A stretch of DNA of 64,000 nucleotides, from NCBI GenBank assembly GCA_964016885.1, contig OZ024740.1, forward strand, positions 265,422,001 through 265,486,000. Direction: 5' to 3'. The DNA comes from Eledone cirrhosa (Eukaryota). The notes beneath the pieces were generated by a model that was not told where the DNA came from, ran no database searches, and saw only the letters and a list, made by a program, of their open reading frames with translations. The position numbers were made by a program, and so were the translations under genes. How positions within the stretch are numbered: the stretch's first letter is position 1; each line of letters opens with the position of its first letter. Positions 9,051-52,217 of the stretch are shown piece after piece.

Positions 9051-9394
9051 AGTCATCTAGCCCCATTTTTACTAATAACTAACTTAGATAATGATAAGTT
9101 ACCTCCCTTAAATTGTCTCTCAATTAAAAAATTAAAAAATTAGCACTTTTTAACTATAAACTACCCACAATTTCTAATTTCTCGAGCAGTTACTTCCCCT
9201 GAAACCATTAGTAAGGTAAATATGTCAATTGGCGGCCATCTTGTTACCCATAGGCAGATCTCATACAATGCCATCTCGACAAAAGAATACTGCTCGACTA
9301 TGGCAGACATAGATATACCCAGGACACCATAGTGAAATACCAATATATGAAACATTACATTCATGTAACATTCTTTCCTTATTTTAATTTATAT

Positions 9395-9524
9395 TCCTTT
9401 TGAACTTCCGATGAGCTGCTCTAATTGTACCTAAGTTAATTATTTTCAATTGAACCTGATCAATAATTGTTTCTACTATTGATCCAGAAACATTATATGG
9501 AGTAGCGAAACAATTGTAAACGGA
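9395..9524 (+). ncRNA. Hammerhead with about 90-nt stem II domain and CCGAUGA core variant
   Basis: CCGATGA 9408-9414; GCTGCTC/GAGTAGC base of stem II; GAAA 9507-9510; palindromic ACAATTGT; GUA 9516-9518. Confidence 0.6.
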
Positions 9525-9647
9525 CATTATTATTATTAATATTATTATTATTATTCTCTACATTCCTTACATAAAACTAAAACTATCTTGACAATCTTTT
9601 AATAATGTCTTCCTTATGAAATTTGTGGTCTTGTTTTGCTAAACTAA

Positions 9648-9704
<57 letters not shown>

Positions 9705-14749: not shown

Positions 14750-14752
<3 letters not shown>

Positions 14753-14932
14753 TTAATATGGATGAGATTCTACAGGACTAGAACTGTTTCATTCTTTAGA
14801 GATCATCAGAGATTCCTGATGATTTCTAAAGAATGAAACAGTAGAATCTCATCTATATTAAAACTTATTATACTCTGCTATGTATTGAGTACCTTACTTA
14901 CTGTGGTTACCTCCGATTCAACCCGGAATAAC

Positions 14933-14934
<2 letters not shown>
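14750..14934. mobile_element. Solo pLTR with two head-to-head hammerheads (minus 14765-14809, plus 14809-14850) in (TA)n
   Basis: Plus strand GAGATTC-CTGATGA-TTTCtaaaGAAT-GAAACA-GTA-GAATCTC; mirror copy on the minus strand; ends in the module GTGGTTACCTCCGATTCAACCCGGAATAACGT shared with 29278-29314, 33675-33705 and 49037-49075. Confidence 0.8.
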
Positions 14935-22729: not shown

Positions 22730-25700
22730 ATAGTATTAGTTATACTATTTATGGTTATGTAAACACAAAACCTTAAGCAGTTGTAAGTATTTTACACACA
22801 CCCTAAATAGTGGTAGGCAGTAATGTATTACTACCTTATTACCAGTAAGTTAAGTAGCTCAATGTAAAAACATCAGATGATTTACAGAGCAGTTATATGA
22901 AATATAAGAATCAAAGAACTGTTCAAAACATTATTGTGCTTACAGCTGTTTCCTCCAAACCGAGGTTTGGATTCTTCGGAGCAATTTATTAATGCATGGA
23001 CAGTTATATGACCTCCTTTTCAGCCGAGAGACATACCAATACATATTCAAACATTGATACATATTCAAACATTGTGGGTCAACATTCATTACAGAATTTA
23101 CAGAATTTAGAGTGGCAGTACACACTTCGAGATTACATTTATATTAATAGGTACAATCAAAAATCAAAGATATAGGTTAAAATACAACATGAAGATAAGT
23201 GGTTATATAGTGCAAATGTTATATGTGTGGCACGCATGTGCGTCTTGTTTATATAGTGTGGCAGAGAGATATGTGTGGTAGAGGCACTTAGGTAGGTAAA
23301 TAAGAGTGTTAGGTTGGTAGATCTGGTGGCAAAGTCTTTATATGATTGATATAGTCTGTGTGTGGAGAAATATTATAAGCATTAAAGATAGTGCAAGCAT
23401 TAAAAGTGTTATAAGTATTGGAGATGCACAGCGCAGGGATGTCAAGTAATTCATGTACTTCGGTATTTTCATGGTCAAGGGAGTGTATATTTCGATTATA
23501 TGCCTTTCACATAATCCACGACAATCCAGTTAGAGATCGTAGTCTGGTGTTCTTTAGTTCGATACAGGAGGTTGTTACGTTTCGAGAGACGCCATTGAAT
23601 ACCGGAAGTGTGTGTGTGGCTAAGGGGAGTTAATGCATGCGGGGAGGTAACTCTGGGGTTTCTATATCTAGCCATTAAAATGTGTCCCAATATAGACCCT
23701 AAATTCTATGGTGAGGTGCACCTTCCAAGAGAGACTTTTAAAGCATAAAGTGTACTAACTATAGAGTAGTTTAACTAAATTATGCTGAAGGTGATCATAT
23801 TATTATTAAGGTGGATTAACCCATCTTAAGGTGCTACAAATGGAAATTATAGATGATGAGCGAGGATTCTAAATTAATGATCTCTGTGGTTGTAGTCTGC
23901 TCATATGACCAGGCGCGGTGACTGCAGGATTGCTTCAGGACCCAATGATCTCTGGTAAGATCTGGGTCATCGCTTGCTACATTGGATGTCGAAAGATAAT
24001 CATCCCCAGGTAGGCCAAAGGTCAATCCGCAGTCCTCGCGACCCCTCTCTGACCGTCAGATCATCCATATACGTACAACCCGCACGGCAGTTGCATTGCA
24101 TTCACTCACTGCGCTCAGCAGCCTGGTCCTACTGGTCAACAGCGCTACTCGATTAAATCATTTTAGATCTGTCTAAGGAGGGTGTTTCCTCTGCCCAACA
24201 CCATCCACCCGATCAATTCATGCTCAAATTACCCTTAGAGCGGTGTAGTGCCGTCCAGGTGGGTGGATGTTGTCACACCTGCCGTAGAGGTATAAATGGG
24301 TATTTTCCCTGCGAAGGGTTCCAGAGGGATGTCGTTGTTTGTGTTATAATGGATCAGCTAGTGTTGGGTATGTAGTATAGGGTGTGTCTCTGGTGTTTGA
24401 TGCTAGATGTGGTGTTAGGTTCCAGTCCGACATTGCTATATATGGGGCTTAAAGTTTTGGAAGGAATGTCTGAGTCGGTGCTGGCAAGTTGCAAACACCT
24501 CAGATTTTTTGTTAAGTAGGTTACGGTTGGAGAAGATAATATTGTGTGTCTCTAGTATACAGAGGTTACAGAATTTATTAGGTGGTTTGTACGAGGTCGC
24601 GCTGCCTATCACTTCCCATTTGAGTGTGTATGGTTTATTTTTAGATTTTAGATAGTGTATGTAGCTAGAAAGTGAGGTGGAGTTGGCTAGGCTGTGCTTT
24701 TTGAACGAGTGGATGTGCGAGTTATATCTAATTTTGAAGCAGTTAGAAGTGGAGCCTACATAGGTTTCTGAAGAGTTATTAGTCGTGACTGTGCATGAGT
24801 ATATGACATCCTTGGTTAGGCATTTTTTATCTAAAGGGCAGGTTCTATTAGCTCTACAGTTACAATTATTCTGTGCGTTAGTCCGCTGGTTATAATGCAA
24901 TGCGGAAGTCTGTGTGGTGGATATAGGATTTTGGGTGTTCAGGTTGACAACCCTGGTGTTATTACTTATACTAGTGTTATTTCTATTGTTACTGCCGTTG
25001 CTATTGTTGCTTGCTACAGTGGTATTTAGAGGGTTTGCATCCCGTTGCGATTTTGTTTGTTGGAAGTAAGAACTAATTTTACTATTATTGCTGCTAGCTA
25101 TGTGGTATGCTGAGTTAGGCGTCGTGGAGTATGAGATTTTAATGGTGTTTTTGTTTAAGAGGTTGTGGTACTTGTGTCCTAGAGGGAAGTTTTTATCCAG
25201 TAGTGAGAAGAAAGCCCTAGGTATGTTGGTGGAGACATTTAGGTTGAAAGGAGGGTTGAAAAATGTATTATTTCTTCTTCTATTTTTGCTTTTAGTGTTT
25301 GGTGTGTTGCTTCCTCCTAATGCCTCACAGTAGTTTCCATGGTAATGGTTACTTCCGGTGGCACCCTCCGCTTTGGTGTACTTGTGGTTGCTATTCCTAT
25401 TATTAGATTTCTTCATGGACATGTTGTGCGAGATGATGTTGTAGCTATGTGTTTTCTTAGGTAGGAACTCAATTTCTATATTATGGCCGGAGCTAGCTAA
25501 TGCTTGATTGTAATATTGTGAGTTTTTGCTAAATATGTTTGCGTCATAGGACAGACTAGAGATTCTATTGGACACCCCCTTAGAGATAGAGTTTAATATT
25601 GATCTAGGGTGATTAGACTCGGTATCTACGTAAATAAGTTTCTCATTAGGCTTATGGAAGGGTGTATATATTTTTGAGTCTAGGTATAGTGTGGCGTCTA

Positions 25701-25810
25701 GGAAGTTAACATTTTTAGTGTTTTTGTCCATGGTGATACTAGGTTAAAGTTTTTGAATGTCTTATGCAGTTGTTTTCTAGTTCTTTCTATATTAAATTTT
25801 TCATATTCTA
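22730..25810 (-). mobile_element. 5'-truncated Penelope-like element (Hydra-clade-like) with a long unique 3' UTR
   Basis: Coding region 24436-25810 followed by about 1.7 kb of non-repetitive sequence ending at (TA)n; the 3' boundary is approximate. Confidence 0.75.
24436..25731 (-). CDS. PLE RT thumb plus GIY-YIG endonuclease (truncated ORF)
   Basis: [53 protein letters not shown]. Confidence 0.85.
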
Positions 25811-25866
25811 TGAGTATATATATATATATACACACACACATACATATACATATATATATATATATA

Positions 25867-25934
<68 letters not shown>

Positions 25935-25977
25935 TACACACACCCACATATATACATATACATATACACATATATAT

Positions 25978-26032
<55 letters not shown>

Positions 26033-26122
26033 CACATACACACACATATATATATACACGCACACAAATATATACACATATATATCAACACACACACACA
26101 CATACACATGCATATGTATAAA

Positions 26123-26163
<41 letters not shown>

Positions 26164-26252
26164 ATATATATATACAAACATACACATACATACACAGGCC
26201 TATACATAAATATACACATATATATACAGACATATAACGCGTATATACACAC

Positions 26253-26321
<69 letters not shown>

Positions 26322-26391
26322 TATACACACACGCGCATACACACATACACACACACACACACACAAATATATATGCACACTCTCTCCCGCG

Positions 26392-26449
<58 letters not shown>

Positions 26450-26526
26450 CATATATACACACATACACACATACACATACACATATATATATATATACAC
26501 ATATATACACACATATATATATATAC

Positions 26527-26567
<41 letters not shown>

Positions 26568-26642
26568 TACATATACATATATATATATATATATATACAT
26601 ACAAATACACACACACATATATATATACACACCTGCCCACAC

Positions 26643-26687
<45 letters not shown>

Positions 26688-26732
26688 TACACACACACAC
26701 ACACGCACACACATACACACATACACACACAC

Positions 26733-26811
<79 letters not shown>

Positions 26812-27106
26812 CACATACACATACATATACATACACATATATACATAAACATACATACATACATACATACACATATATACACACACACACATACATATAC
26901 ACACATACAAACAAATATATACACATACAAATAAATAGGTACTCAATAAATATACGCATATACGCAGGCACATAAAGACACCTCTACAGGCAGAAAATGT
27001 AGATACGAAAGAGGTACTCACATAACCATAGTGGCCGTATTTCAGGTTGAGGGGGGTGGGGGTAGGGTGGGGAGGAGGTATAGGGGCCAATAGGGGGAGG
27101 TCGTTT

Positions 27107-29231
27107 TTAGCCATCGGGCTTTAACACTGGCTTAAAGTGTTTGAAGGATGCAAAGTTCTTGTGCATGCAGTTCGGGCAGTGTTCAGTAGCGGGCCCTTGG
27201 CGAATAAAATTTCGTAGCTCTCTGAAATACAAAGGTCGCAGCCCTTGTGTCCTCCGTTGTATGAGCGCGCCTTCTGGAGTATTTTCCATTTAAGCGTGAA
27301 GGGGGTGGAGTTCCTTTTGAGGTCCCAAACGTAGGAGGCGAGTGTTGTCTGATTTAATTTATCCGGTCTTCTGAAGGAGTGGGTATGGGCATACCAACGG
27401 GTCTTAAAATTGTTGGAGGTTATGCCGATGTAAGTTTTTTTGCAATCCTCGGTGCCTGAGATGACATCGCATTTGTATACGATGTCATTTGTGAGGTATT
27501 TGTTTTCAAGTGGGCATGCTTCCTTATTTAGGCAATTACATAGAGCCCCAGTCCGGGGATTGGTTTCGGAGGTGGTTGGCTTATTTAATTTAGAATTGTG
27601 GTTGGCTATATTCCTAGCTAGGTTAGGTGTGGTGGAGTAAGACAGTCTTATAGTGTTCTTATTAAAGATGGTGTAGTACCTATGTTGTATGGGGAAGTGT
27701 AATTTCAGTAAAGTGAAGAAAATCCTAGCTATCGGAGTAGATACCTCTCTATTGAAGGGAGGGTTATACCAGCTAATCTGCCTATGTCTATTCCTCCTCT
27801 GCAATCTTGCGGTGGTTTCTAGGTAAGTTATCTTATCTTTAAATCCGCTACGGGCGAGGGCGTCATTGTAGTAGGAGGCAGATGCATTAAAAATATCTTT
27901 GTTGGCGGAGAGGCCAGATATTCTAATAGAGACGCTTTTTACTAGGTTATCAGTGATGTTTTGGGGGTGGTTTGAATTAACATTAATATATTTAAGGGAC
28001 TCGTTAGGTTTGTGGTACGGGTAATAGAGGGAAGTATCTAGGTCGAGAGTGACATCTAAGAAGTTGGCCCTAGTCAAATTAGAATCTATAGTTATACTAA
28101 ATCCTAGATTAGAGAAGAAAGAGCTTAAGTTTTTCCGAAACCCATCGGTGGTTCTGGGGTTAACCTTATGCAGGGCGAAGAGGCCGTCGTCTCGGTATAA
28201 ACCTCCCGTTAGGCCGGTAAAGAGGTTCTTCAGGTTATGTAGGATGTCAGGCCCACAAGGTCGCTAATTTCAGCCGAGTCACTCGCCCCCATGCTAACGT
28301 CAAATGGGGTCTGAGATTTCTTGTTGATCCAGTAAGATCCATCGTGGTATAGAAAGGTCTTACGAGCGTGGAGGATAATAACTTGCTCAGCATCGGTAAT
28401 GGTGGTAAAATTCCTGGCAAAGTTAATTGCGTCCTTCAGGATGGGCTCCGAGATAGAGGCATAGTAGTTTTCTATGTCGAGTTGCAGGAAGCGAGTGTGG
28501 TGTTTATCGGGTAATTCTTGGAACCATGATATTGCCTCGGATGTTCTACTCCAGAGTGGAAGTGGTGAGGCTGCCCGCAATGATGGTAGAACTCTATCCA
28601 GGATCTTCTTACTGATAGAGCCGATGTCAGAACGAGTGGGGTTGATAAGTCTGACTGATGGTTTGTTGAGGAAATTTCCCTTATGGTCCTTCAGGGTAAA
28701 GTGCGGGGTCTTTACCCTTAAAGGTTCGGTTCGGTCATGTAATTTAAGGGACATGGCGATTTCTTTTCCGGCCGCGTTTGTCTCAGTCAGTGCCCTCTCT
28801 ATTACCTTTTTGTAGGTGGTCGTGATGGTATTTTTTGCCAGCTTATTGTAGGTCTGTGGGTCTACCTCATAAACGTTTTTGGTTTTATCGGAGGAGACAT
28901 AAAGATTAGGGGATTTTTTTATATTCCGTAATTCGGCATTTAAGTAGGCCTGGAATGGTGTGATGGCTCTACGGAATTTAATATCCTTGATCATCTTGAA
29001 GAGGTCTTCTTCAAATGGTTGGAGTAGGCTGTTGGTGGGTGGTGTCTTATTCGTTTTGAAGCCGAACTTCTCATCATTGGTAGATGCTACATCAGGGTTG
29101 TCGAGGAAGAAGGCCCTCCATTTAATTCGCTTGATGAACTCGTCGGTACGTCTGATGAGTGTTTTTAATAGTTTCCTTGGAGGGATAGCGATGTTCTTCA
29201 AGGAAATATCAAGGTCGAGTTTGGTCAGCAT
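27107..29231 (-). pseudogene. Near-full-length PLE ORF (RT plus GIY-YIG) with small frameshifting deletions near 28250 and 27183
   Basis: ATG at 29231; [73 protein letters not shown]. Confidence 0.9.
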
Positions 29232-29265
29232 GGTTTCTTGATGATGGTTATAAGGGGCACAAAGA

Positions 29266-30621
29266 GTGCTAAAATGTACGTTATTCCGGGTTGAATCGGA
29301 GGTAACCACAGTAATTACCGATGCTGAGCAAGTTATTATCCTCCATGCTCGTAAGACCTTTCTATACCACGATGGATCTTACTGGATCAACAAGAAATCT
29401 CAGACCCCATTTGACGTTAGCATGGGGGCGAGTGACTCGGCTGAAATTAGCGACCTTGTGGGCCTGTACATCCTACATAACCTGAAGAACCTCTTTACCG
29501 GCCTAACGGGAGGTTTATACCGAGACGACGGCCTCTTCGCCCTGCATAAGGTTAACCCCAGAACCACCGATGGGTTTCGGAAAAACTTAAGCTCTTTCTT
29601 CTCTAATCTAGGATTTAGTATAACTATAGATTCTAATTTGACTAGGGCCAACTTCTTAGATGTCACTCTCGACCTAGATACTTCCCTCTATTACCCGTAC
29701 CACAAACCTAACGAGTCCCTTAAATATATTAATGTTAATTCAAACCACCCCCAAAACATCACTGATAACCTAGTAAAAAGCGTCTCTATTAGAATATCTG
29801 GCCTCTCCGCCAACAAAGATATTTTTAATGCATCTGCCTCCTACTACAATGACGCCCTCGCCCGTAGCGGATTTAAAGATAAGATAACTTACCTAGAAAC
29901 CACCGCAAGATTGCAGAGGAGGAATAGACATAGGCAGATTAGCTGGTACAACCCTCCCTTCAATAGAGAGGTATCTACTCCGATAGCTAGGATTTTCTTC
30001 ATTTTACTGAAATTACACTTCCCCATACAACATAGGTACTACACCATCTTTAATAAGAACACTATAAGACTGTCTTACTCCACCACACCTAACCTAGCTA
30101 GGAATATAGCCAACCACAATTCTAAATTAAATAAGCCAACCACCTCCGAAACCAATCCCCGGACTGGAGCTCTATGTAATTGCCTAAATAAGGAAGCATG
30201 CCCACTTGAAAACAAATGCCTCACAAATGACATCGTATACAAATGCGATGTCATCTCAGGCACCGAGGATTGCAAAAAAACTTACATCGGCATGACCTCC
30301 AACAACTTTAAAACCCGTTGGTATGCCCATACCCACTCCTTCAGAAGACCGGATAAATCAAATCAGACAACACTCGCCTCCTACGTTTGGGACCTCAAAA
30401 GGAACTCCACCCTCTTCACGCTTAAATGGAAAATACTCCAGAAGGCGCGCTCTTACAACGGAGGACACAAGGGCTGCGACCTTTGTATTTCAGAGAGCTA
30501 CGAAATTTTATTCGCCAAGGGCCCGCTACTGAACAAACTCTCTGAACACTGCCCGAACTGCATGCACAAGAACTTTGCATCCTTCAAACACTTTAAGCCA
30601 GTGTTAAAGCCCGATGGCTAA
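29266..30621 (+). CDS. PLE RT (C-terminal half) plus GIY-YIG endonuclease, open reading frame; first 16 codons come from the inversion junction
   Basis: [70 protein letters not shown]. Confidence 0.88.
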
Positions 30622-30834
30622 AAACGACCTCCCCCTATTGGCCCCTATACCTCCTCCCCACCCTACCCCCACCCCCCTCAACCTGAAATACGGCCACTAT
30701 GGTTATGTGAGTACCTCTTTCGTATCTACATTTTCTGCCTGTAGAGGTGTCTTTATGTGCCTGCGTATATGCGTATATTTATTGAGTACCTATTTATTTG
30801 TATGTGTATATATTTGTTTGTATGTGTATATGTA

Positions 30835-30871
<37 letters not shown>

Positions 30872-31061
30872 GTTTGTTTGTTTGTGTGTATATGTGTTTT
30901 ATGTGTGTATATTTATGTATGTATATGTATGTATATATATGTGTATATATATGTATATATATATATATATGTGTGTATATATGTGTATGTATGTATGTAT
31001 GTATGTGTATGTATGTATGTATGTTTATGTATATATGTGTATGTATATGTATGTGTATGTG

Positions 31062-31148
<87 letters not shown>

Positions 31149-31183
31149 ATGTGTGTATGTGTGTGCGTGTGTGTGTGTGTGTA

Positions 31184-31220
<37 letters not shown>

Positions 31221-31291
31221 GTGTGGGCAGGTGTGTATATATATATGTGTGTGTGTATTTGTATGTATATATATATATATATGTATATGTA

Positions 31292-31356
<65 letters not shown>

Positions 31357-31529
31357 GTATATATATATGTGTGTGTATATATGTGTATATATATATATAT
31401 GTGTATGTGTATGTGTGTATGTGTGTATATATGTATATATATATATATATATATGTGCGTGAGAGAGAGTGTGTATATATATTTGTGTGTGTGTGTGTGC
31501 GTGTATGTGTGTATGCGCGTGTGTGTATA

Positions 31530-31592
<63 letters not shown>

Positions 31593-31681
31593 GGGTGTAT
31601 ATACGCGTTATATGTCTGTATATATATGTGTATATTTATGTATAGGCCTGTGTATGTATGTGTATGTTTGTATATATATAT

Positions 31682-31730
<49 letters not shown>

Positions 31731-31820
31731 CATATGCATGTGTATGTGTGTGTGTGTGTGTGTATATATATATGTGTATATATGTGTGTGCGTGTATATA
31801 TATATATGTGTGTGTATGTG

Positions 31821-31891
<71 letters not shown>

Positions 31892-32113
31892 GTGTGTGTG
31901 TATGTGTATATATATGTGTGTGTGTATGTATGTGTATATGTGTATATATAATATGTATATGTGTGTGTTTATATGTGTGTATATATATATGTATATATAT
32001 GTGTATATATATATATGTATATATATGTATATATGTATATACATACGTGTATGTATGTGTATATACATATTTATATATATGTGTGTGTATATGTATGTTT
32101 GTATGTGTGTTTG

Positions 32114-32154
<41 letters not shown>

Positions 32155-32210
32155 GTGTGTATGTATGTATATGTGTGTATATTTTTTATATATATGTATA
32201 TATTTATGTG

Positions 32211-32259
<49 letters not shown>

Positions 32260-32301
32260 GTGTGTGTATATATATGTGTATATGTATATGTATATATGTG
32301 G

Positions 32302-32341
<40 letters not shown>

Positions 32342-32344
32342 GTA

Positions 32345-32384
<40 letters not shown>

Positions 32385-32418
32385 GTGCTTTTTCCTTATA
32401 TATGTGTATATGTGTGTA

Positions 32419-32469
<51 letters not shown>

Positions 32470-32536
32470 ATATATGTGTGTGTATGCGGTTTTTTTTATA
32501 TATATATATATGTGTGTGTGTATGTATATATGTATA

Positions 32537-32573
<37 letters not shown>

Positions 32574-32616
32574 ATACGTATGTGTGTGTATATATATGTG
32601 GATGTATGTATGTGTG

Positions 32617-32675
<59 letters not shown>

Positions 32676-32840
32676 ATATGTGTCCGTGTATATGTATGTA
32701 TATATGTCTATATGTATTTGTGTGTATATGTATACACATGTATATTTGTGTTTGTATGTAGGTGTGTGAGTGTATTTATATGTGTATATACGTGCGTGTG
32801 TGTGTATGTATGTGTATGTGTGTGTGTATGTGTATATATA

Positions 32841-32873
<33 letters not shown>

Positions 32874-32876
32874 GTA

Positions 32877-32966
<90 letters not shown>

Positions 32967-33571
32967 TATGTATGTATGTGTGTATGTATATGTATGTATA
33001 TGAATATATTTTATATATGTGTGTGTGTTTTTATGTGTGTATATGTGTTTGTGTGTGTGTTTATGGTTGCGCGTAAGTGTGTGAGTGAGTATGTTTTTTT
33101 GTTTTTTTGTTTTTTTGTGAATGTGTCTGTTGATTTTTGGCATATAGTTGATTAGTTTAAGAGAATTTCGAAGATAATAGTAAGATATGCACTCAGTATT
33201 TTGAATCTGTCTGCAGAATTCTCTAGACCTTTGTCATTTAGTAGAACCTTAATGATTTTAGCTGTTAAACAATCTCCCTTTTCTTTAATTCTATCGACCA
33301 TGACTGACCCCCCACTGATTTTATAGACATCTGTTAGCTTAAGAGAAACTTAATGACAAGGAACGGTATGCCATCCGGAACCTGTTTATAGAATTCTGTC
33401 TGCCCTTGTTACTCTAAAAACATAAATAAATAAAAATAAACTATAGCTTTGTAGAATTAGCTTTTAATGAATTCCCTTTTGTATCAACCAATGACCTGCA
33501 CCCATCCCACTCCCCACCCTCTCCTACCACTTGTAGAGACCTATAAATACCATTTTTATTTTTTGATACCC

Positions 33572-33622
33572 AGATTCCTGATGATTTCTAATGAATGAAA
33601 CAGTTCTAGTCCTGTAGAATCT
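33572..33622 (+). ncRNA. Intact type-I hammerhead in the PLE 3' pLTR
   Basis: AGATTC / CTGATGA (33578-33584) / TTTCtaatGAAT / GAAA / ACAG ttctagtc CTGT / GUA (33614-33616) / GAATCT; 6-bp stem I. Confidence 0.85.
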
Positions 33623-33707
33623 CATCTATATTAAAACCTTTATACTCTGCTATGTATTGAGTACCTTACTTACTGTGGTTACCTCCGATTCAACCCGGAA
33701 TAACGTA

Positions 33708-33738
<31 letters not shown>

Positions 33739-33937
33739 ATGTGTGTGGGTGTGTGTGTATGTGTGTGTGTGAGTTTGTATGTATCTATTTATGTATGTAT
33801 GTGTAAATAAAAATTGAATGAGAAGCTTTGACCATATTCTTTCACTATAGCCTAATAACAGTGCATATAAAAACCCTAAACGGAAAAAATTAGGCATCAG
33901 CACACCAGCTCAAATAATGTTCTTTCAAATCGTCTCC

Positions 33938-36338: not shown

Positions 36339-36660
36339 GTGTTATGTTTGCTGGGTGACTAGTGTGTGTTTATGTGCTTGTTGTTATTGTGCTTGTGTAT
36401 GTATTTATTTATCTTATTTTATTTACATATTTATACTTCTCTTAGGTCAGTGTTGTTTGTTTGGGTGTTGTTGTGTTGTTATTCCACTCATTCTTTCTAT
36501 TTAGCTTTGGTCTTCTAATTTCTATTTCACTGGCCTCTCTGATTTGCCTATCTGCTGGGTCATTTCTATGTTTAGATATTATTCTAATTTCTATGTTGTC
36601 TATGTTACCGTCATGTTGTTGTCTAGCATGTTCGTATAGTACTGACCCGTTTTTTCGTTT

Positions 36661-37209
36661 GTGGACGCCACCCCTGGAGGGAAATTAGCTAACCAGTGTA
36701 GAAAGGTCCTGAGAAAGACCCACTTAAAAATAAAGGTGGTAGAAAAGCCAGGAACCACCTTAAAATCCCTGATCAGCAAAACCTACCCTTTTAAGAAAAC
36801 CCACTGTACCAATAGGAAATGTATCATATGTAAGGTGAACCCCCGGATAAACTGTAAAACTAGAAACGTAGTCTATAGCATAAGATGTACAGAGGGTACT
36901 TGCAGAAACATGACAACAACATACATAGGTGAGACAGCTCGTAGCATAGGTGAAAGGATAGACCAACACTGGGGGGAACTAAAAGGACGAAAAAACGGGT
37001 CAGTACTATACGAACATGCTAGACAACAACATGACGGTAACATAGACAACATAGAAATTAGAATAATATCTAAACATAGAAATGACCCAGCAGATAGGCA
37101 AATCAGAGAGGCCAGTGAAATAGAAATTAGAAGACCAAAGCTAAATAGAAAGAATGAGTGGAATAACAACAACACCCAAACAAACAACACTGACCTAAGA
37201 GAAGTATAA
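36661..37209 (+). CDS. PLE GIY-YIG endonuclease domain (fragment)
   Basis: CTNRKCIIC..NCKTRNVVYSIRC..C..YIGETARSIGERIDQH..HARQQH..RQIREA..LNRKNEW. Confidence 0.85.
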   Translation: MDATPGGKLANQCRKVLRKTHLKIKVVEKPGTTLKSLISKTYPFKKTHCTNRKCIICKVNPRINCKTRNVVYSIRCTEGTCRNMTTTYIGETARSIGERIDQHWGELKGRKNGSVLYEHARQQHDGNIDNIEIRIISKHRNDPADRQIREASEIEIRRPKLNRKNEWNNNNTQTNNTDLREV

Positions 37210-37949: not shown

Positions 37950-38159
37950 CAGATTTGTTTTATAAATAAATATTGACATACCCGGAAAAAAGACAACCTT
38001 AACGGTTGGAGCTTCCTGGATAGTGGAGATAATATTTTATTGAGGGTAATACAGAGTTATGAGTGAGTATGCAAATGAGTGTCCGAAAAGTTGAAAAGAT
38101 AACGGTTTATTTAAATTAAAATGTTGGAAGAGGATGATATGTGAGGGAGAGAGAAAAAA

Positions 38160-39190
38160 ATTATTTTTTTAGATGTAACTTTAAACCTTAATACTCCTCT
38201 TTATTATCCATTTCATAAAATCAATGAGAATTTAAACTATGTTAACTTTAATTCCAATCACCCCAGATCCGTTAAAAACACTATTGTAAATTCTGTGCAG
38301 CAACGTATTTCTAGAATTTCAGCGAATAAAAATATATTTGAAATTAAGGCACAATATTATAACGAAGCGTTAAGTAGAACAGGCTATAGTAATGAAATTA
38401 AATACATTTATAATAAGGATGTGCCAATTAACCATAACTATAAATATAATTATAATAGGAAACCTTGCACTAACTCGAAAATCAAAAGAAGAAATAGAAC
38501 TAGAAATATATTATGGTTCGCTCCCACTTTCTCATTAAGTATTAAAACTCCTATAGCTAAATTATTTTTTAAAGCTCTAGATAAGTGCTTTCCTAAGACA
38601 CACAGATATTACTCAATCTTTAATAGACATACTATTAAACTCTCATATTCCACCACTATGAATTTAGCACAGAATATTATTAGAATTAATAATAGAAACT
38701 TAAAACCTAACCAGAATAAGCAATATCCAATATAATGTTACGGCTCCTAATAATATAAATTTAGATAAATGTAATTGTAGAAATAAATCTAACTGTCTTT
38801 TAAATAATAACTGTTTAGTTAAAAATATAGTATACAATTGTAATGTCAAAACCAATGAAAATTCCTTTAACTATGTCGGCTCTACTTCCACAGACTTCAA
38901 ATCTTGTTTCAATAACCATAAATGTTACTTTACGAATATTGGCAAAAAATCTTCAACTTCTCTATCCAACTTATTATGGAACTTAAAATCCAAGTATATT
39001 AACTATTCTTTATTTTAGGAAATTATCTCCAAAGCTCCTTCATACACGGCTCTATCCAACAATTGCTGCCTTTGCGTTGAAGAAATATTCTTGATCCTAA
39101 AAAGTAGGAACTCTATTAATTTGCGAAATAATTTATTTAGTTCTTGTAAACATCGTTTAAACTAAACTTTTAAATATATATATATAAAAT
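38160..39190 (+). pseudogene. PLE (Hydra-clade-like) RT thumb plus GIY-YIG, disrupted; AT-rich 3' UTR continues to about 40200
   Basis: FLDVTLNL, SNHP, WFAPTF, IKLSYST, CNCRNKSNC, YVGSTS, CCLC. Confidence 0.85.
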
Positions 39191-40600: not shown

Positions 40601-41269
40601 CCCTCAGAGTTAAGAATAATGTAAACAAATTAGTAGAACGAAAATGACAGAGGTTATTAAAATCATAAAAGTAATAATAATTAAATATAAACATACACGC
40701 ATCTATATACGTACATACACGTGCATACGAGAAAACACCCGCCATGTACACATAAACACGTTCACACATACATAAACCCGCGCGACATATGTACCCGAAC
40801 ACATACGAACGTATACACCAAATACACATAAAAAAATATATAGATGTGTGTCTGTGTACACATATAATTATATAAACGTATACACACATAAATACGTATA
40901 TAACGCACACACACACATACCTACAGGTAAATAAACATATGTTCAGTACGTCAACCAAAACACAATGTACACATATACACACCTTACATACCTGCAAACA
41001 TGCATACACGCATACTCACAAAATGCACATATACACATAACCATATACACACCACTATATATAATATAATATATACACCTATAACAAATGCAAGCATATA
41101 TAGGTACGAGAAAGTATACGTACCTTCACAAAACATATGGGTAAGGTATACTTACCTATACAAATAAGTAATGGTATAAACATAAAATATACTTAGCTAC
41201 CACATCAAGACATAAATTATCCGCGTATTGTTCGTACTATCCGTTAGGGTATAATGTGGGGCTGTAATA

Positions 41270-42445
41270 CAGGGGAGTGTTATGCAATTTGTGTTTACAA
41301 ACCGGAATTGCCTCACATTTTTTGTTTAAGATGTGATCATTGACGTAGAGTATTTCCAGGGCTTCAGCGGAGCAAAGATCGCATCGTCTTTTATTTCCGT
41401 TATACGATCTAGCTTTAGCTAAGATCTCCCAGTGTAACCTATATTGGGTGTGGTTGTCTTTTAGACTCCAGATATAAGCTGGAATGACGTCATATTCCTT
41501 CTTAAAGAGTTAAGAAAATAATGGGTGTGCATGTAAAGACGCTGCTTGAATCTGTTGGCAGTTAACCCTATGTAGGCCCTACTAGACGTGAGTGTTTCGA
41601 CCTGACATTTGTAGACAATGTTACTGGAGACGCATTTACCGGATAAAGGACAGTCAACCCGATTCCTACAATTACAGTTAGTACTAGCTACAGGGTTGCA
41701 GGTGTTCCTACGACTATGTAATTTAGCTACATTTGAAGCAGTGATGTTGTGTGCCATGTTAGGAGTCGTAGAGTAACATATTTTAATGGCAATTCTATTA
41801 AAAATGTTATTATTATTTTATTATTGTGCTGAGGGGAAATGCTTCTTAATAAGGGAGAGAAAGATGTTACCTAATGGTGTGGCCACCTCCATATTATATG
41901 GTGGGTTATACCATATAATGCGTCGGGATCTATTTTTCCATGGTTTATGCTCTTACTTAGTATATGCTACATTATCGACAAATTTACTCCGAGTAAGAGC
42001 TTCATTGTAACATGTGGAATGGTCGGTGAAAATATGCTCGTTTGTAGATAGACGGGCAAGCCTCAAAGCAACGTTTCTTATCAGGTTCTTGGTTATGCTG
42101 GCAGGATGGTTAGGATGCTTGCTTATGTAATTAAGCGTATCATTCGGCTTTCTATACGGGTTGTGCAAGCCATTGGACAAATTGAGGGTAACATCGAGGT
42201 AATTAACGACTGACAGGTTAGCCTCAACCTGTCTGGAGAGGCTGAAGCCTTTAAAGAAGGCTGTGAGTTATTTTCTAAATCTGTCGCAAGCGCGTGGACC
42301 GCACTTTGTCATGGTCAAAAGACCGTCATCGCGGTACAAACCACCGCCCACATTGGGGAGTTCTTCCTTGATAGAGAAAACTAGGAAAAGGCCGGTAAGA
42401 TCTGTAACCTCAGTTCTTAAAAGGCCGGTAAGATCTGTAAGTTCA
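41270..42445 (-). pseudogene. PLE (Hydra-clade-like) RT plus GIY-YIG, disrupted
   Basis: ORF pieces [46 protein letters not shown]; 33-bp tandem duplication at the 5' junction (42387-42441). Confidence 0.85.
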
Positions 42446-44229: not shown

Positions 44230-47200
44230 TATGTGTGTCTGTGTCTATTTATGTATGTCTACGCCATTTTTATTTAGTCTGTCTATATATTTATTTATTT
44301 ATTTGTTTGTTTATTTTATTTTGTCTTCTTTGCGCATGCGTTTGCGTGTGTGTATAGTGTTTTGTTTGATGTGTGTTCGTGATTGGGTGACTGTGTATCG
44401 GTTAATGTATTCTATCTTTACTAGTGTGTCTTTATATGTGTTTGTTGTTATTGTGCTTGTGTATGTATTTATTTATTTATCTATTTATTTATTTATTTAT
44501 TTATACTTCTCTTAGGTTAGTGTTGTTTGTTTGGGTGTTGTTGTTATTCCATTCATTCTTTCTGTTTAGTCTTGGCCTTCTAAGTTCTATTTCACTGGCC
44601 TCTCTGATTTGCCTATCTACTGGGTCATTTCTATGTTTAGATATTATTCTAATTTCTATGTTGTCTATGTTACCGCCGTGTTGTTGTCTGGCATGTTCGT
44701 ATAGTACTTACCCGTTTTTTCGTCCTTTTAGTTCCCCCCAGTGTTGGTCTATCCTTTCACCTATGCTACGAGCTGCCTCGCCTATGTATGTTGTTGTCAT
44801 GTTTCTGCAAGTACCCTCTGTACATCTTATGCTATAGACTACGTTTCTAGTTTTACAGTTTATCCGGGGGTTAACCTTACATGTGATACATTTCCTATTA
44901 GTAGAGTGGGTTTTCTTAAAAGGGTAGGTTTTGCTGATCAGGGATTTTATGGTGGATCCTGGCTTTTTACCACCTTAATCTTTAAGTGGGTCTTTCTCAG
45001 GGCCTCTCTACACTGGTTAGCTAATTTCCCTCCAGGGGTGGCGTCCACAAACATGACACTCTGGTATCTCTGGTTGTCGTACCATGAGGTGGCTTTGCCT
45101 ATCTTATGTCTAGCCTTATCTAAGCTATTCCATGATTTGCTCCTGTATAATGGGCAAATTCCTTTCATATCCAGTTCTATGAGGGTCTTATACTTCTCCA
45201 TGGCTCCTTCGTATACTCTGACTCTGTCGCTTTGGTTGTAGCCAGAGAACTGCATGCGATTGATGAAGTGTTGGATGTGTCTTTCCATTTCTGTTGGGTC
45301 GCACATGCGGGACACATTCTTCATCACTCGTACCAAATCTTCGATCAGAATATTAAACTTAGCACTACTGGACATTGATGAGTTTTTGAGTATCAGGTAT
45401 TTGGAGGCCATGGGTTTAGCATAGTGTGAGTGGATAATTTGGGCTCTCCCGTCTATAGTGTTAATCCAGAGTTCCGTGTCTAATACAGGTAGTCTATTGT
45501 TAGGGTGTTTGGAAGGGAAGTCGATAGTTACAGTTATACTCTGGTGTATGGAATTAGCTATCTGCTGGATGATTTCCATTGTGCTACGTTCTAAATCAAA
45601 CTTGTTAGTGCTCTCTAGTGGGGATGTTATTATAACTATATTGATATCGTCTACGTAACGAGAGTACATGATGAGGTTTATGGAGCTCTCATTAAGGAGA
45701 TCTTTAAGTCTCCTTTCCCACCATACCAGGAAAAGGTTGGCAACATCACCAGCTATGCTGACGCCAATGGCTGCTCCCTCATTTTGGGTGTAGATCTTCT
45801 CGTTGAACTTGAATATGTGGCCCTTTAGGGTAGTTTTCATACTAGCTCCTATTGCATGTGCGACCATTTTTCTTACCTAATCATTGTTTTGGGGGGTCCG
45901 TTTAGCTTTGGTCCACCCAATCCACCTTCCCATGGGAGTTTTTTTTGCCATTGAGGTTATGGTGGGGGGTCTACCTCTTATGGGTCTACTAGGGCAGAAA
46001 CGTCTAAGGTCATGGCTGTCTAGGTAGTCAGTGTCGTAGGTAAGTCTAAGTAGGAGGCCCAGTTCGTCTGTGTCGACGTCGCAGAACTCCACCTCACTCT
46101 CATCCATGCTGCCTATTATGCAGTTGGATAGGTTCCTGTTTTTGTTGCACTCACTGATTCTGCTGAGGAGGTCCTCTGTACTGTCACATACACCTGGGGA
46201 CATCGTGATTATGGGGCGTATAACTATTGAGAGGAAGTAGGAGATCCTGTAGTTGCTAGCTATATTAGCTCCGCATACGGGTCTTGTTGGTGGTCCTGTT
46301 GTCGGGTCGTCGACAGGTCTTGTGGTCTTTGCGGAGCCCATACAAGGGTGGTATGCCATTGTTAGAGGTCTGGAAGTTGTTGGCAGTGCGTCTGCTTGGC
46401 TTTAGGATGTCAGTCCACATCATCATGTGAGCTTTGAGGATTTTCTCTCTCCCATCATGTGTTTGCTGTGCAATTTTGCTCGTGTTGGTAATGTGGGGTT
46501 GCATAGCCTTGATGTAGTTCGGCATGCTATCTATTGACATCCTACCAGACTTATCCGTGGGTAGACATGCTACCTCACCATCCCTTGTGCGCTGCTTGAG
46601 GCTAACCAAGCCTTCTACAGGTTTCCTCCCAAGTTGTTGGGCCTCTGGTCTGCCCTGTCTCTTAGTATACCGGTCTACTATTTGTCTAATCTTATTTCTA
46701 GCTATTGTGAACTGTGCCTCCGTCTCGTCATCTATTTGCTGTGGTATGCAAACTCTTTTATTAAAGGGTAACCTCGTAGGATAGATATTACCCATCTTAT
46801 ATGTTTTGTCAGCTGGGTTGAAAAATAGTTTCTCTAAGGGGTTGTCATTATATCTATCGTCATAGTTGTGTGTGTTGCTATTGTTGTTATCATGGTGGTT
46901 GTTGTTGTTCCTATCATTTGCATTATTATTATTGTTATGATTGCTAGATGTATTGTTGTTTACTTCACCGTTATTGTTGTTGTTACTGTTATTTCTACCA
47001 TTGTGGTTGTTACTTTTATTATGTGTCTTGTTTTTGTTGTGTCTATCATTAATGTTGCTACATGTATTATTTCCATTATTACCACTGTGGTTATTGTTGT
47101 TGTTGTTCGTATTGTTACCGTTATTACTACTGTGGTCGCTGCTGCTGTGTCTGTGGTTAATGTTTCTATTATTATTATTATTATTGTGGTTGTTATTGTT

Positions 47201-48310
47201 GTTCTGTCTATCGTTAGTATTATTACCATTATTACTATTTCTCACTCTCCTATTAGTACAGTGAGTTTTCTTAAAAAGGTAGGTTTTGCTGATGAGGGAT
47301 TTTATGGTGGTTCCTGGCTTTTCTACCACTTTAATCTTTAAGTGGGTCTAGGAAATGTATCATATGTAAGGTTAACCCCCGGATAAACTGTAAAACTAGA
47401 AACGTAGTCTATAGCATAAGATGTACAGAGGGTACTTGCAGAAACATGACAACAACATACATAGGCGAGACAGCTCGTAGCATAGGTGAAAGGATAGCCC
47501 AACACTGGGGGGAACTAAAAGGACGAAAAAACGGGTAAGTACTATACGAACATGCCATACAACAACACGACGGTAACATAGACAACATAGAAATTAGAAT
47601 AATATCTAAACATAGAAATGACCCAGCAGATAGGCAAATCGGAGAGACCAGTGAAATAGAACTTAGAGGCCAAGACTAAACAGAAAGAATGAATGGAATA
47701 ACAACAACCCAAACAAACAACACTGACCTAAGAGAAGTATAAATAAATAAATAAATAGATAAATAAATAAATAAATACATACACACGCACAATAACAACA
47801 AACACATATAAACACACACTAGTAAATATAGAATACATTAACCGATACACAGTCACCCAATCACGAACACACATCAAACAAAACACTATACGCACACGCA
47901 AACGCATGCGCAAAGAAGACAAAATAAAATAAACAAACAAACAAATAAATAAATAAATATATAGACAGACTAAATAAAAATGGCGTAGACATACAATGTA
48001 ACGGGAGGAAACAATAGCACCATTGACGTTGTTGCAGATGTGCAACGAAAGAACTGTGATAAACTATATATATGTGTGTGTGTCTATATTGTATCTGTAT
48101 TATTTTTGACCGTCGGTTAGTCAATGGCAACATTGAGGACCGAATAAATTAGATTACCGATATAAAAGACACAGAAGCGAAAAGCGAAAACCCACCAAAC
48201 AGTGAGTGTGTTCTGTTATTAATTCTGGCAATATTACACAAATATGACCCTCCCCAAGTATAACAATATTTGTTTCGACACACGATTTCATATAATAAAC
48301 CTCGCAAAAC
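44230..48310. mobile_element. PLE family B: long minus copy (44230-47350) plus inverted 3' end and pLTR copy (47349-48310, plus)
   Basis: 47349-47990 mirrors 44250-44897; a linker fragment is duplicated at 47242-47350. Confidence 0.88.
44505..47240 (-). pseudogene. PLE family B polyprotein: Asn-rich N-terminus, RT and GIY-YIG, with frameshifts and deletions
   Basis: PTDKSGR, LYGLRKDHK, RPVCGA, IGSMD (motif A cut by a deletion), GAAIGVSIAG, YSRYVDDI, LPVLD, YAKPMA; endonuclease at 44505-44950. Confidence 0.88.
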
Positions 48311-48561: not shown

Positions 48562-48635
<74 letters not shown>

Positions 48636-48739
48636 AAATGAAGTAATTCCGTCGGAAAAGTCCAGGAAAAAAGAGTGCTCTATGTAAGCAACAGAGCTTA
48701 ATTATTATTATTATGTAATAAACAACATAAGGCAAGTAT

Positions 48740-48797
48740 TCCATTTACCAGTGGTTTCTTAAAAGCAAAAGGTTTTGCTTTCAATCCTCAGAATGAA
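48740..48797 (-). ncRNA. Intact type-I hammerhead
   Basis: Minus strand CATT-CTGAGGA-TTGAAAGCAAAA/TTTTGCTTTTAA-GAAACCACTG-GTA-AATG. Confidence 0.8.
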
Positions 48798-48937
48798 AAA
48801 ATCCTGGTTTGTTTATTGAATTTGCATCTTAAAAACAAAAAAGCAAGCTATATGAAAGTGAGGCTGGAGAAGGAAGAAGGAAAGGAAAAATAAAATAAGA
48901 CTACACATACAACCACACATACACGAAAAAACATAAA

Positions 48938-49018
<81 letters not shown>

Positions 49019-49141
49019 ACACACGCATACACACACGCGTTATTCCGGGTTGAATCGGAGGCAGCCACAGTAAGCAAGGCACTCAGTACACCGCAGAGCA
49101 TGAAAGTTTTAATATAGATGAGAATCTGTATATGTATACAA

Positions 49142-49202
<61 letters not shown>

Positions 49203-49723
49203 CACACACACGCGCGCGCGCGCATGTGTATGCGCGCACGCACGCACGCGTATACAAATATAAATATATTTCCCCCATACACATGTGTGTGCGTGCATGC
49301 GCGCTTACGCGCATGCGTACGCGTGCCCATGGGTGCGCGCGAGTGTATGAGTGGGTATGTTCTGTTGAAAGTGTCTCGTGAATTTATGGCTACAGTTGTA
49401 TAGATTATACTTAGAAATTGTCTACAGAATTCCCTAAACCTTCGTCAATTTACTAGAATCTTTAAGAATTTAGCTTTTAAGGAATCTCCCCTTCCTCCAA
49501 ATCTATCTACCATGACTGACCCCATACTGATCTTACACACAAACATATCTACACACACACACGCATACATATATATATACACACACATACACACACACAC
49601 ATACACACACACATGCATATATACACACACATACACACACACACACATATATACACGCATATATATACATATATATATATGCGCGTGTGTACACGCATAC
49701 ACATACATACACATAGCCATACC

Positions 49724-49773
<50 letters not shown>

Positions 49774-50367
49774 CATACATTCACACAATCAAACATATAT
49801 ACACACTTACATGCATACACATACATAAATGCACTCCTCTACATATTCACACACGCAAATAAATATGAGAAAAAAAATATATATATATATATATATTATA
49901 AAAATATTGAGACCGTTACATAAGGCCGCAAACTGGACAGACAAGCGTGGTAAGAAACACACACAAAAGCACATATACATACGCACGAAATAGTCAACGC
50001 ATTCACACACTCTCACGCATAAAAAAAATTTCAAATACAAATACATAAACGCATACATACGCATACATGCATAACCACGCACAAGTGTACAATCTATACA
50101 CACACACATGTGTATACAACTATATGCACACACATACATATATGCATACATATACACACATATATATACATAAATACAAACGTACACACACACAATATAC
50201 ACGTACACATACACACACATATACATACATAGCTAAACATTTATACACATACAAATACGTATATATCATAAACACACACACATACACACACACACACACA
50301 TACACATACACACACACATACAATTATCAATATATACACACGCACATATGTACACACACACACATAT

Positions 50368-50410
<43 letters not shown>

Positions 50411-50580
50411 CATGCATATACACATATACACACATACACAACCACGCACACACACATGCATACGCATACACACACGTATATGCGTGTGTGTATGTAAAAC
50501 TCAATCTTAGATAAATCATAAGGACCTTACATATACGTATATATAGTAGTAAAGTATTAAAGCAACATAAGGCAATTATT

Positions 50581-50637
50581 CCATTTACCAAGGGTTTCTT
50601 AAAAGCAAAAAAATTTTTCCTACAATCTTCAGGATGA
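50581..50637 (-). ncRNA. Type-I hammerhead with partly decayed stems, mirror of 52161-52217
   Basis: Minus strand CATC-CTGAAGA-TTGTAGGAAAAA..TTGCTTTTAA-GAAACCCTTG-GTA-AATG. Confidence 0.6.
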
Positions 50638-50776
50638 GAGAAACCTGGCTTATCCACACATACACATATATACACACACACACAAATACATACATATATA
50701 AATACATACACACAGGCACACACACACATACGTATAAACATATATACATACACACATACACATACACACATATATC

Positions 50777-50830
<54 letters not shown>

Positions 50831-51039
50831 CATACATACACACAAATATACATACACATACAGATAGGTATGTGGAGGGCAAGGCAAAAAGAATATATGT
50901 GGGGGGGCGCATAGGAGAAGGTAAAATATAAGGGGAGGTAAGGGAGAAAAAATATATAATAAATGTAAATATACAAGAGTACAGAACGTAGAAACAGTAA
51001 AATAAAAACCGTAGCAGAAGTAAAGAGCGGGATAGGAGT

Positions 51040-51755: not shown

Positions 51756-51977
51756 ACTCCTCTCCCGCTCTTTACTTCTGCTACGGTTTTTATTTTACTG
51801 TTTCTACGTTCTGTACTCTTGTATATTTACATTTATTATATATTTTTTTCTCCCTCACCTCCCCTTATATTTTACCTTCTCCTATGCCCCCCCCCCCCCC
51901 CACATATATTCTTTTTGCCTTGCCCTCCACATACCTATGTGTATGTGTATGTATATTTGTGTGTATGTATGTATATG

Positions 51978-52013
<36 letters not shown>

Positions 52014-52160
52014 GAGAGAGATATATGTGTGTATGTGTATGTGTGTATGTATATATGTTTATACGTATGTGTGTGTGTGTGCCTGTGTGTATGTATTTAT
52101 ATATGTATGTATTTGTGTGTGTGTGTATATATGTGTATGTGTGGATAAGCCAGGTTTCTC

Positions 52161-52217
52161 TCATCCTGAAGATTGTAGGAAAAATGTTTTTGCTTTTAAG
52201 AAACCCTTGGTAAATGG
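52161..52217 (+). ncRNA. Type-I hammerhead with partly decayed stems
   Basis: CTGAAGA 52166-52172; GAAA 52200-52203; GUA 52210-52212. Confidence 0.6.

Follow-up and report, generated by a model that had tools for sequence, protein, structure and literature searches.

The window, that is, the whole 64-kb stretch of DNA that was analysed, contains two arms of a PLE family (family A) inserted head to head into a TA tract. The following features were located at this site:

29314..33705, plus strand: plus arm of the head-to-head insertion (family A, a Hydra-clade PLE), with a 5'-truncated RT; its terminus is the long (tailed) 3' end
29316..30621, plus strand: 3' part of the RT/GIY-YIG ORF, open frame
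30622..30706, plus strand: C-rich segment past the stop and 5' exon of the probable splice; in intron-less copies it adjoins 33574
30707..33573, plus strand: probable GT-AG intron of 2,867 bp that copies normally keep; it has a consensus donor and a pyrimidine tract
30800..33059, plus strand: TA/TG/TATG mosaic inside the intron, with 17 tracts of at least 10 TA units
33572..33622, plus strand: type I hammerhead motif (pattern match), core from 33578, predicted cut after 33616
33638..33705, plus strand: 68-bp stretch from the short 3' end (33637) to the long 3' end (33705)
33706..33740, plus strand: (TA)n target flank
25812..29317, minus strand: minus arm of the same insertion, with tail, whole ORF, donor and partial mosaic, then cut off
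22730..25811, minus strand: copy of another Hydra-like PLE (family B), truncated at its 5' side and abutting a TA tract in the mosaic of the minus arm

The first-pass annotation had placed the ORF stop at 30621 and the hammerhead at 33578, with about 2.3 kb of mosaic between them, and had listed three landmarks in the same order on both arms; the mosaic was measured at 2,260 bp and the landmark positions were right to within 1 base. Where one larger indel between the arms had been reported, the landmark offsets give two larger deletions in the minus arm, of ~145 bp and ~400 bp. The minus-arm ORF (29231-27121) carries a frameshift near 28247 and a 13-bp deletion near 27186. It is followed by the donor at 27021 and by the mosaic at 26942-25812, within which the arm ends at 25812, before any hammerhead; the rest of this arm was sought across the 64-kb window and was not found. 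Over 1,451 bp the two arms differ at 14 places (12 substitutions, one 1-bp indel and one 13-bp indel), and their mosaics were aligned with 1211 matches and 25 mismatches. The arms are products of one insertion and have a private variant in common, which was present in 0/40 other complete spans, so the inverted copy does not provide the independent evidence for which it had been taken.

The single ORF of family A encodes an RT and then a C-terminal GIY-YIG endonuclease, and is intact (713 aa) in the copy at L075. A Pfam GIY-YIG match was obtained for one of eight fragments (E=2e-4, just under the cut-off), and 1170 homologues of the ORF were retrieved at E<=1e-50. The L075 protein has RWR, and DKT in place of DKG, the homologues having RWK or RWR; inspection of the alignment by eye revealed the CxCx5C linker and the CxxC and CxH motifs, and no CCHH motif. 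The two other Hydra-clade criteria, a hammerhead motif in the pseudo-LTR (pLTR) and insertion into (TA)n, were also observed. Assignment to the Naiad clade, which has an N-terminal endonuclease and no canonical hammerhead, was rejected, since here the endonuclease is C-terminal and the hammerhead motif is present. By comparison of its motifs with published descriptions, the element is classified as a young Hydra-clade PLE. In the part of Craig et al. 2021 (PMC8557442) that deals with this clade, the features in common are RT with C-terminal GIY-YIG, RW[KR], DKT, CxCx5C, CxxC and CxH, together with the hammerhead, the (TA)n target, the tail and the inverted and tandem copies. The Hydra consensi listed there measure 1.1-3.0 kb and have the hammerhead near the end, with no intron or internal microsatellite mentioned in that part; a length below 3 kb is given as a general tendency and not as a diagnostic motif. 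Unlike those listed consensi, the family A monomer reaches ~5.3 kb and that of family C 6.65 kb. The greater length is due to the microsatellite-filled intron, and without it a family A monomer measures ~2.4 kb, the size described for Hydra elements.

The mosaic is a T-purine sequence (50% T, 30% A, 19% G, 1% C). The two window arms had 164 rare 12-mers in common, 154 of them collinear, compared with 4-63 in common and 2-20 collinear for eight control mosaics from the window. Copies from other loci were fetched as the top-scoring ones, a sample biased toward young and similar copies, and in 40/40 that span the ORF end to the hammerhead the mosaic was present with its landmarks collinear (length 691-6524 bp, median 2551). 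These copies had a median of 202 rare 12-mers in common, 91% collinear, against control maxima of 63 and 20. Exact genome-wide searches with two mosaic landmarks gave 365 and 624 matches, and the reversed-pattern controls gave 0. In 45 copies with a 3' anchor, the 5' landmarks were lost stepwise, with 5'-truncation points within the mosaic; one of 38 ORF-end stretches (L062) lacked the mosaic beyond its first bases. These results support the earlier proposal that the mosaic belongs to the mobile unit and that the family A PLE disperses it. Comparison with an 84%-identical relative (L219) gave background landmark sharing only (13 common, 4 collinear), which indicates that the position of the mosaic persists whereas its sequence turns over.

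Nineteen arms at 15 loci were found to be intron-less, with 30706 joined exactly to 33574 and no microhomology at the junction. All of them keep PLE-type ends (12 long, 7 short), and no acceptor of the unspliced type was present within 1.5 kb of any of them. An exact-motif count yielded 565 copies with the donor and 8 spliced ones; thus, ~98% of the copies that reach the donor retain the intron. The exact intron-less DNA copies would imply precise removal from RNA. Together with their PLE-type ends, they point to sense RNA, usually unspliced, as the template. The C-rich segment 30622..30706 may contain a promoter or transcription start. An acceptor-like site lies shortly before the ORF start, and none of 14 matches showed splicing to it. 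No intron-less family C copy was detected at the acceptor past its mosaic with a pattern that misses exons having A as the second-last base, and the intron reading appears to be demonstrated for family A alone.

The acceptor falls in helix I of the hammerhead, which has 6 bp in the unspliced form and 4 bp in the spliced one. Core boxes and helices I-III were recognised by pattern in 95/100 rows, and a compensatory change in helix I was observed in L219. The Rfam scan gave 0 hits, leaving the hammerhead undetected, and free folding of the family A hammerhead gave a z of about 0. The motif is regarded as a putative ribozyme, with predicted cleavage.

As had been suggested, the element inserts into (TA)n: 61/61 long ends run into TA repeats, as do 41/43 short ends inspected by eye, and exact tail-plus-TA junctions numbered 5174 (control, 0). 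The terminal 39 bp of the stretch between the two ends are also present upstream of the ORF start. Head-to-head pairs were found 33 times in 74 fetched stretches, and 27 of the 33 combine one long and one short end. This pairing matches the two internal RT start sites that define the tail of Anolis PAc in the available part of Frangieh et al. 2024 (PMC11167929). There, cleavage and extension take place on both DNA strands, and the template is an uncleaved tandem RNA. PAc belongs to the Poseidon clade and is described with an AT-rich target and a 30-40 bp tail, whereas the two ends of family A are 68 bp apart. No more than 60-130 bases separate the RT start sites from the splice junction, yet only 19 spliced arms were found beside over 5,174 long ends; unspliced RNA thus appears to be strongly preferred.

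In view of these data, we consider it very probable that the mosaic occupies a spliceosomal intron of 2.9 kb; it is present in hundreds of dispersed copies, and the likely reason is that sense RNA, mostly unspliced, serves as the template for RT into (TA)n targets. The enzyme would nick a TA tract on both strands, two cDNAs would be primed at separate internal positions of a single transcript, and two mosaics could thus be delivered in one event. The intron would be spliced out of the mRNA of the tandem ORF that lies downstream, and its length would therefore cost the protein nothing, which would leave it free to gather slippage products and nested fragments; tract lengths would afterwards drift through DNA slippage. 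A retained intron would thus be one concrete way for a transposon to carry kilobases of microsatellite at no protein cost. Introns have been described, in the parts of the reports available, in the pLTR of D. virilis Penelope (PMC4209133, PMC2377424) and in the 5'-UTR of Chlamys-3_cRei (PMC8557442), measuring 75 and 398 bp. Like these, the intron of family A is spliceosomal, situated in the pseudo-LTR and genomically retained, and as in D. virilis Penelope the acceptor in helix I means that spliced and unspliced RNAs correspond to different ribozymes. Unlike them, it is mostly microsatellite, and intron-less genomic copies occur at 15 loci here, whereas none is reported for those two elements in the same parts of the reports.

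One question is whether the intron also produces microsatellites. It could be a microsatellite-making cargo bay, in which (UA)n hairpins are A-to-I edited and the edits fixed by RT, nested PLE ends captured in the intron are remobilised, and families of many ages together add up to a large share of the dinucleotide-repeat DNA; editing would explain why the mosaics are all of the TG type on the sense strand. Single interruptions of the mosaic were indeed 317 TG versus 23 CA, with TT (16) and AA (14) balanced. However, A-to-I editing as the TG source was not supported: the unique parts of the element showed no A>G excess (in the ORF, 0.0015 versus 0.0014 for T>C). Young family C mosaics had 46 G>A versus 24 A>G, as slippage would give. 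We regard this extended reading as unlikely.

The target-seeding effect on which a feedback depends was observed directly, and its size can be bounded. In agreement with the first-pass annotation, TA tracts of the mosaic are hit again: ~25 later insertions were counted in 92.9 kb of mosaic, against a single one in 76.5 kb of the element's unique sequence, and those in the mosaic include pieces of the same family and of other Hydra-like elements. That PLE-borne mosaics are the main microsatellite source, through a runaway target-seeding loop, is nevertheless unlikely. Two other Hydra-like families in the window have mosaics of their own, and mosaics were found in families A, C and D and at two more PLE ends from an arbitrary sample. 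In family D, the fossil hammerhead end of a relative is fixed inside the mosaic at 23/24 other loci. Against such a loop, a mosaic followed only 2/6 sampled endonuclease ends, and the longest sampled repeat blocks are almost pure TA arrays beyond PLE bodies. The genome is ~10% dinucleotide repeat, a sample-based estimate of 290 Mb, to which family A contributes ~1.3-1.9 Mb (~0.4-0.6%) and ~12,000 of ~3 million tracts. The earlier proposal that the loop explains the microsatellite richness of the genome is not supported; for family A, the target-supply feedback is real locally and small genome-wide.

The mosaic had originally been interpreted as part of the 3' UTR. Its location within the mobile unit and 3' of the stop was confirmed, and this would also fit an ordinary exonic 3' UTR, the intron-less copies then descending from one chance DNA deletion; the evidence above instead places it within the pseudo-LTR, in a spliceosomal intron that is normally retained. 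One hammerhead allele is common to 12/19 intron-less arms, and the intron-less label is somewhat clustered on the tree (24/500 shuffles as low), as a single deletion would give. However, the breakpoints coincide exactly with a consensus donor and with an acceptor after a pyrimidine tract, both splice sites are kept at matching places in L219, and the acceptor in helix I recalls the intron tested in D. virilis Penelope, as far as described in PMC4209133. Furthermore, strongly supported branches (2/46) force at least two origins of intron loss on a tree that is weakly resolved and took in only the 7 spliced arms that were long enough, and three hammerhead alleles are common to spliced and unspliced copies. 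A single deletion in an exonic UTR is, consequently, very unlikely.

An equally small probability is given to the possibility that intron-bearing copies derive from an antisense template by self-priming, and only the rare spliced copies from sense RNA. This model was proposed in PMC3846280, where it and the unspliced-sense model of PLE intron retention were both left standing, and it explains why so few copies lack the intron. Spliced and unspliced copies do not differ, however, in their two 3' ends, their (TA)n target or their head-to-head arrangement, and a single pathway is therefore favoured. The exactly spliced copies with normal ends point to the use of sense RNA and, with their rarity, offer a simple read-out for mechanism tests.

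It is extremely improbable that the mosaic is a host microsatellite, locally expanded and duplicated as DNA, or that the inverted repeat is an assembly artefact, which the first-pass annotation had named as a refutation: the private variants common to the window arms and the repeat content of the genome would fit local duplication, but collinear landmarks recur across many chromosomes, at dozens of loci, the mosaic itself contains truncation and inversion junctions, and the differences between the arms and the recurrence of such pairs speak against an artefact.

The mosaic of family A can also be compared with the microsatellites of other retrotransposons. Penelope elements with syntenic SSRs have already been reported in penaeid shrimp (Yuan et al. 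2021, PMC7878876), in a paper that asks how TEs carry SSRs; as here, young Penelope copies hold internal microsatellites whose length changes later, and the part of that report available names neither a clade nor an intron and describes no target feedback or mechanism. Lepidopteran RTE elements (Tay et al. 2010, PMC2887409) likewise spread SSRs with common flanks, their SSR being described there as short and 3'-terminal, in contrast to the kilobase internal intronic mosaic of family A. Elements of this type will be split at the mosaic and under-counted by repeat libraries, and will yield multi-locus microsatellite markers.

In the window, a single Penelope-like element (PLE), family A, is present as a head-to-head pair; its protein carries the Hydra-clade motifs as defined in section 11 of PMC8557442. 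The TA/TG mosaic and its landmarks were found where the first-pass annotation had placed them, between the ORF stop and the hammerhead.

Features of the family A insertion and related sites
29314-33705, plus: plus arm, begins mid-RT and closes in (TA)n
30621, plus: ORF stop of this arm
30707, plus: consensus splice donor
30800-33059, plus: TA/TG mosaic (2,260 bp), between the ORF stop and the hammerhead-bearing unique stretch
33197-33415: unique part of the intron, on the minus strand resembling a decayed coding fragment
33573, plus: acceptor after a pyrimidine tract, inside hammerhead helix I
33578, plus: hammerhead core, in the unique stretch 3' of the mosaic
29317-25812, minus: minus arm, entire ORF (frameshifted) and first part of the same mosaic
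29268-29277, minus: acceptor-like motif, also in the family C monomer
14750-14933: minimal head-to-head insertion of the hammerhead region only, one short and one long end

The minus arm contains a partial mosaic followed by a junction with a fragment of a different PLE. Its mosaic is shorter than that of the plus arm by two deletions (~145 bp and ~400 bp), not one larger indel as annotated. Over 1,451 bp, 12 substitutions and two indels separate the arms, which excludes an assembly palindrome. One variant common to both arms was absent from all 40 other spans, indicating a single origin event, so that the inverted copy is not the independent support it had been taken for.

The ORF end and the hammerhead region were used as queries against the own genome (3.0 Gb). 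Forty copies (98-99% identity) were scored with each, and 74 stretches were fetched around them, one short contig being left out and four places lying inside overlapping stretches. Of the spans holding both unique borders, 40 of 40 had the mosaic between them (691-6524 bp, median 2551), sharing with the window mosaic a median of 202 rare 12-mers, 91% of them collinear, as against at most 63 shared and at most 20 in order for control mosaics (n=8). It stopped after a few bases in one of the 38 ORF-end stretches (L062), and in six others it was present with the far border out of range. Exact searches of the whole genome matched the terminal tail plus TA 5174 times, the mosaic's 3' border 624 times, a landmark in mid-mosaic 365 times and the 5' border of the closest subfamily 96 times; each reversed control gave 0. 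Landmarks were lost stepwise from the 5' side in 45 copies anchored 3', and inversion junctions were located within the mosaic, a pattern expected of reverse transcription. The proposal that the element carries and spreads the mosaic thus holds family-wide, and a purely local duplication, with other copies lacking it, was not what the spans revealed.

Family A copies stop at either of two fixed positions, 33637 (short end) or 33705 (long end), which are separated by 68 bp. TA repeats adjoin 61 of 61 long ends and, on visual inspection, 41 of 43 short ends. In 27 of 33 head-to-head insertions a long end was paired with a short one, in agreement with in vitro work on an anole PLE, where RT started at two internal sites and both strands were extended (PMC11167929). 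Single interruptions in the target TA tracts (L061-L134) were balanced after long ends (CA 20, TG 16) and TG-biased after short ends (TG 22, CA 3). A large part of the 5174 tails probably comes from mini copies like that at 14750-14933. The hammerhead gave no Rfam match and was not recovered by free folding; pattern matching recovers the core boxes and three helices, and helix I shows a compensatory change in a relative of 84% identity (L219).

The mosaic had been assigned to the 3' UTR. It does lie 3' of the ORF stop and within the element, but on the genomic evidence it is inside a predicted GT-AG intron of 2,867 bp, whose donor and acceptor are both kept in the L219 relative. A genome search for exon-end motifs that lack the first donor base directly after them returned 14 matches, eight of which, at 6 loci, run straight on at 33574; the rest were five point variants and one entering TA. 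The donor is kept in 565 copies. When one mismatch was allowed, the junction of 30706 to 33574 was found in 19 spliced arms, spread over 15 loci and many chromosomes. These were cut without microhomology and end normally in (TA)n (12 long, 7 short); within 1.5 kb of each arm, no acceptor of the unspliced type was observed. In a 49-row tree, including the 7 spliced arms of sufficient length, strongly supported branches force at least two origins of intron loss and the best tree needs five, most branches being unresolved. Three hammerhead alleles are common to spliced and unspliced copies. The intron-less monomer (~2.4 kb) equals in size the Hydra elements described in the PMC8557442 supplement, and the intron layout is that of D. 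virilis Penelope, in which the intron also ends in helix I (PMC4209133). Helix I is predicted from DNA to shorten from 6 to 4 bp after splicing.

PMC3846280 did not decide between an antisense template and an unspliced sense one as the reason why introns are retained. The intron-less copies favour sense RNA as the template. Since the junction lies 85 nt past the stop, spliced ORF-bearing RNA would be exposed to nonsense-mediated decay, which we infer may contribute to the scarcity of spliced templates. Families A and C (~45% protein identity) carry a similar acceptor-like motif 35-37 nt before the start codon, possibly a second or alternative 3' splice site skipping the hammerhead. In all families with a mosaic, a C-rich run lies ahead of it (30622-30690, 51850-51930, 55720-55765; also L208 and L219); this run is a possible promoter element. 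The unique intron part matches at ~77% a piece nested in family D.

SSR-carrying PLEs have been reported in shrimp (PMC7878876), and (TA)n targeting by Hydra and pLTR introns are already known. A search of mainly open literature and part of the Hydra supplement found neither a PLE described with a kilobase-sized microsatellite intron nor genomic PLE copies described as exactly spliced.

Two further families of the window, C and D, have family-wide mosaics of their own; the mosaic is lacking in family B and in the family of L105.

Other PLE features of the window
48577-54004: family D head-to-head insertion
51434-53350 and its inverted arm: family D, mosaic-bearing
49038-49541, 53351-53893: rearranged pieces of a family A relative in both family D arms
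54042-58560: family C, mosaic in 18 of 18 rows listed
58345-58505: family C hammerhead-like fold, 10-bp helix I, helix II longer by ~110 nt (z -6.4)
6027-9654, 36435-37209, 38145-39177, 41240-41503, 44505-47738, 59345-61004: additional PLE pieces from several families, plus a LINE-like RT fragment

At least eight PLE insertions lie in these 64 kb. A relative's degenerate hammerhead end inside the family D mosaic is fixed in 23 of 24 other loci, showing a nested fragment carried onward. In the window's family D insertion, the family A-relative piece present in both arms was either copied into each as a nested insert or duplicated later. Family C is very young (99.5-100% identity), with an open ORF, and forms head-to-tail arrays of at least five 6.65-kb monomers closed by an inverted arm (G000:C6:49.52-49.57 Mb, L185-L189; also L190-L196). 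Units within one array have private variants in common, consistent with a single RNA template that was long or circular, or with DNA amplification afterwards.

Inserted pieces of at least 60 bp numbered 28, in 20 of 40 family A spans. With a TC run set aside, and with two pairs counted once each as the halves of an inverted insertion, ~25 net insertions remain in 92.9 kb of mosaic, most adjoined by TA tracts. Among them are a mini copy of family A itself and fragments of other Hydra-like PLEs. In the unique element sequence outside the parts used to select copies, 76.5 kb in total, there were one insertion and one repeat expansion. Alternating dinucleotide repeat made up 9.8% of forty arbitrary 10-kb stretches, and long TA tracts numbered 1040 per Mb; scaled up from this small sample, in which two stretches weigh heavily, these values give ~290 Mb and ~3 million tracts. 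Mosaic-bearing family A arms were put at roughly 565-830 (exact counts corrected by the exact-match rate), or ~1.3-1.9 Mb of mosaic. The microsatellite fraction within PLEs was thus estimated for family A, at 0.4-0.6% of dinucleotide-repeat DNA. The suggested target-seeding loop is real, but family A does not account for the microsatellite richness of the genome. TG-type mosaic followed 2 of 6 sampled endonuclease ends.

Each of the five mosaics observed (in A, its relative, C, D and L208) was TG-type on the sense strand. An editing origin was tested and is unsupported; intronic U/G richness with slippage is the simpler candidate explanation of the bias. Nearly pure kilobase TA arrays with TT/AA interruptions, interspersed with short PLE ends and with other miniature inverted repeats (L237, 1237-10000), are of a different kind from the intronic mosaics.
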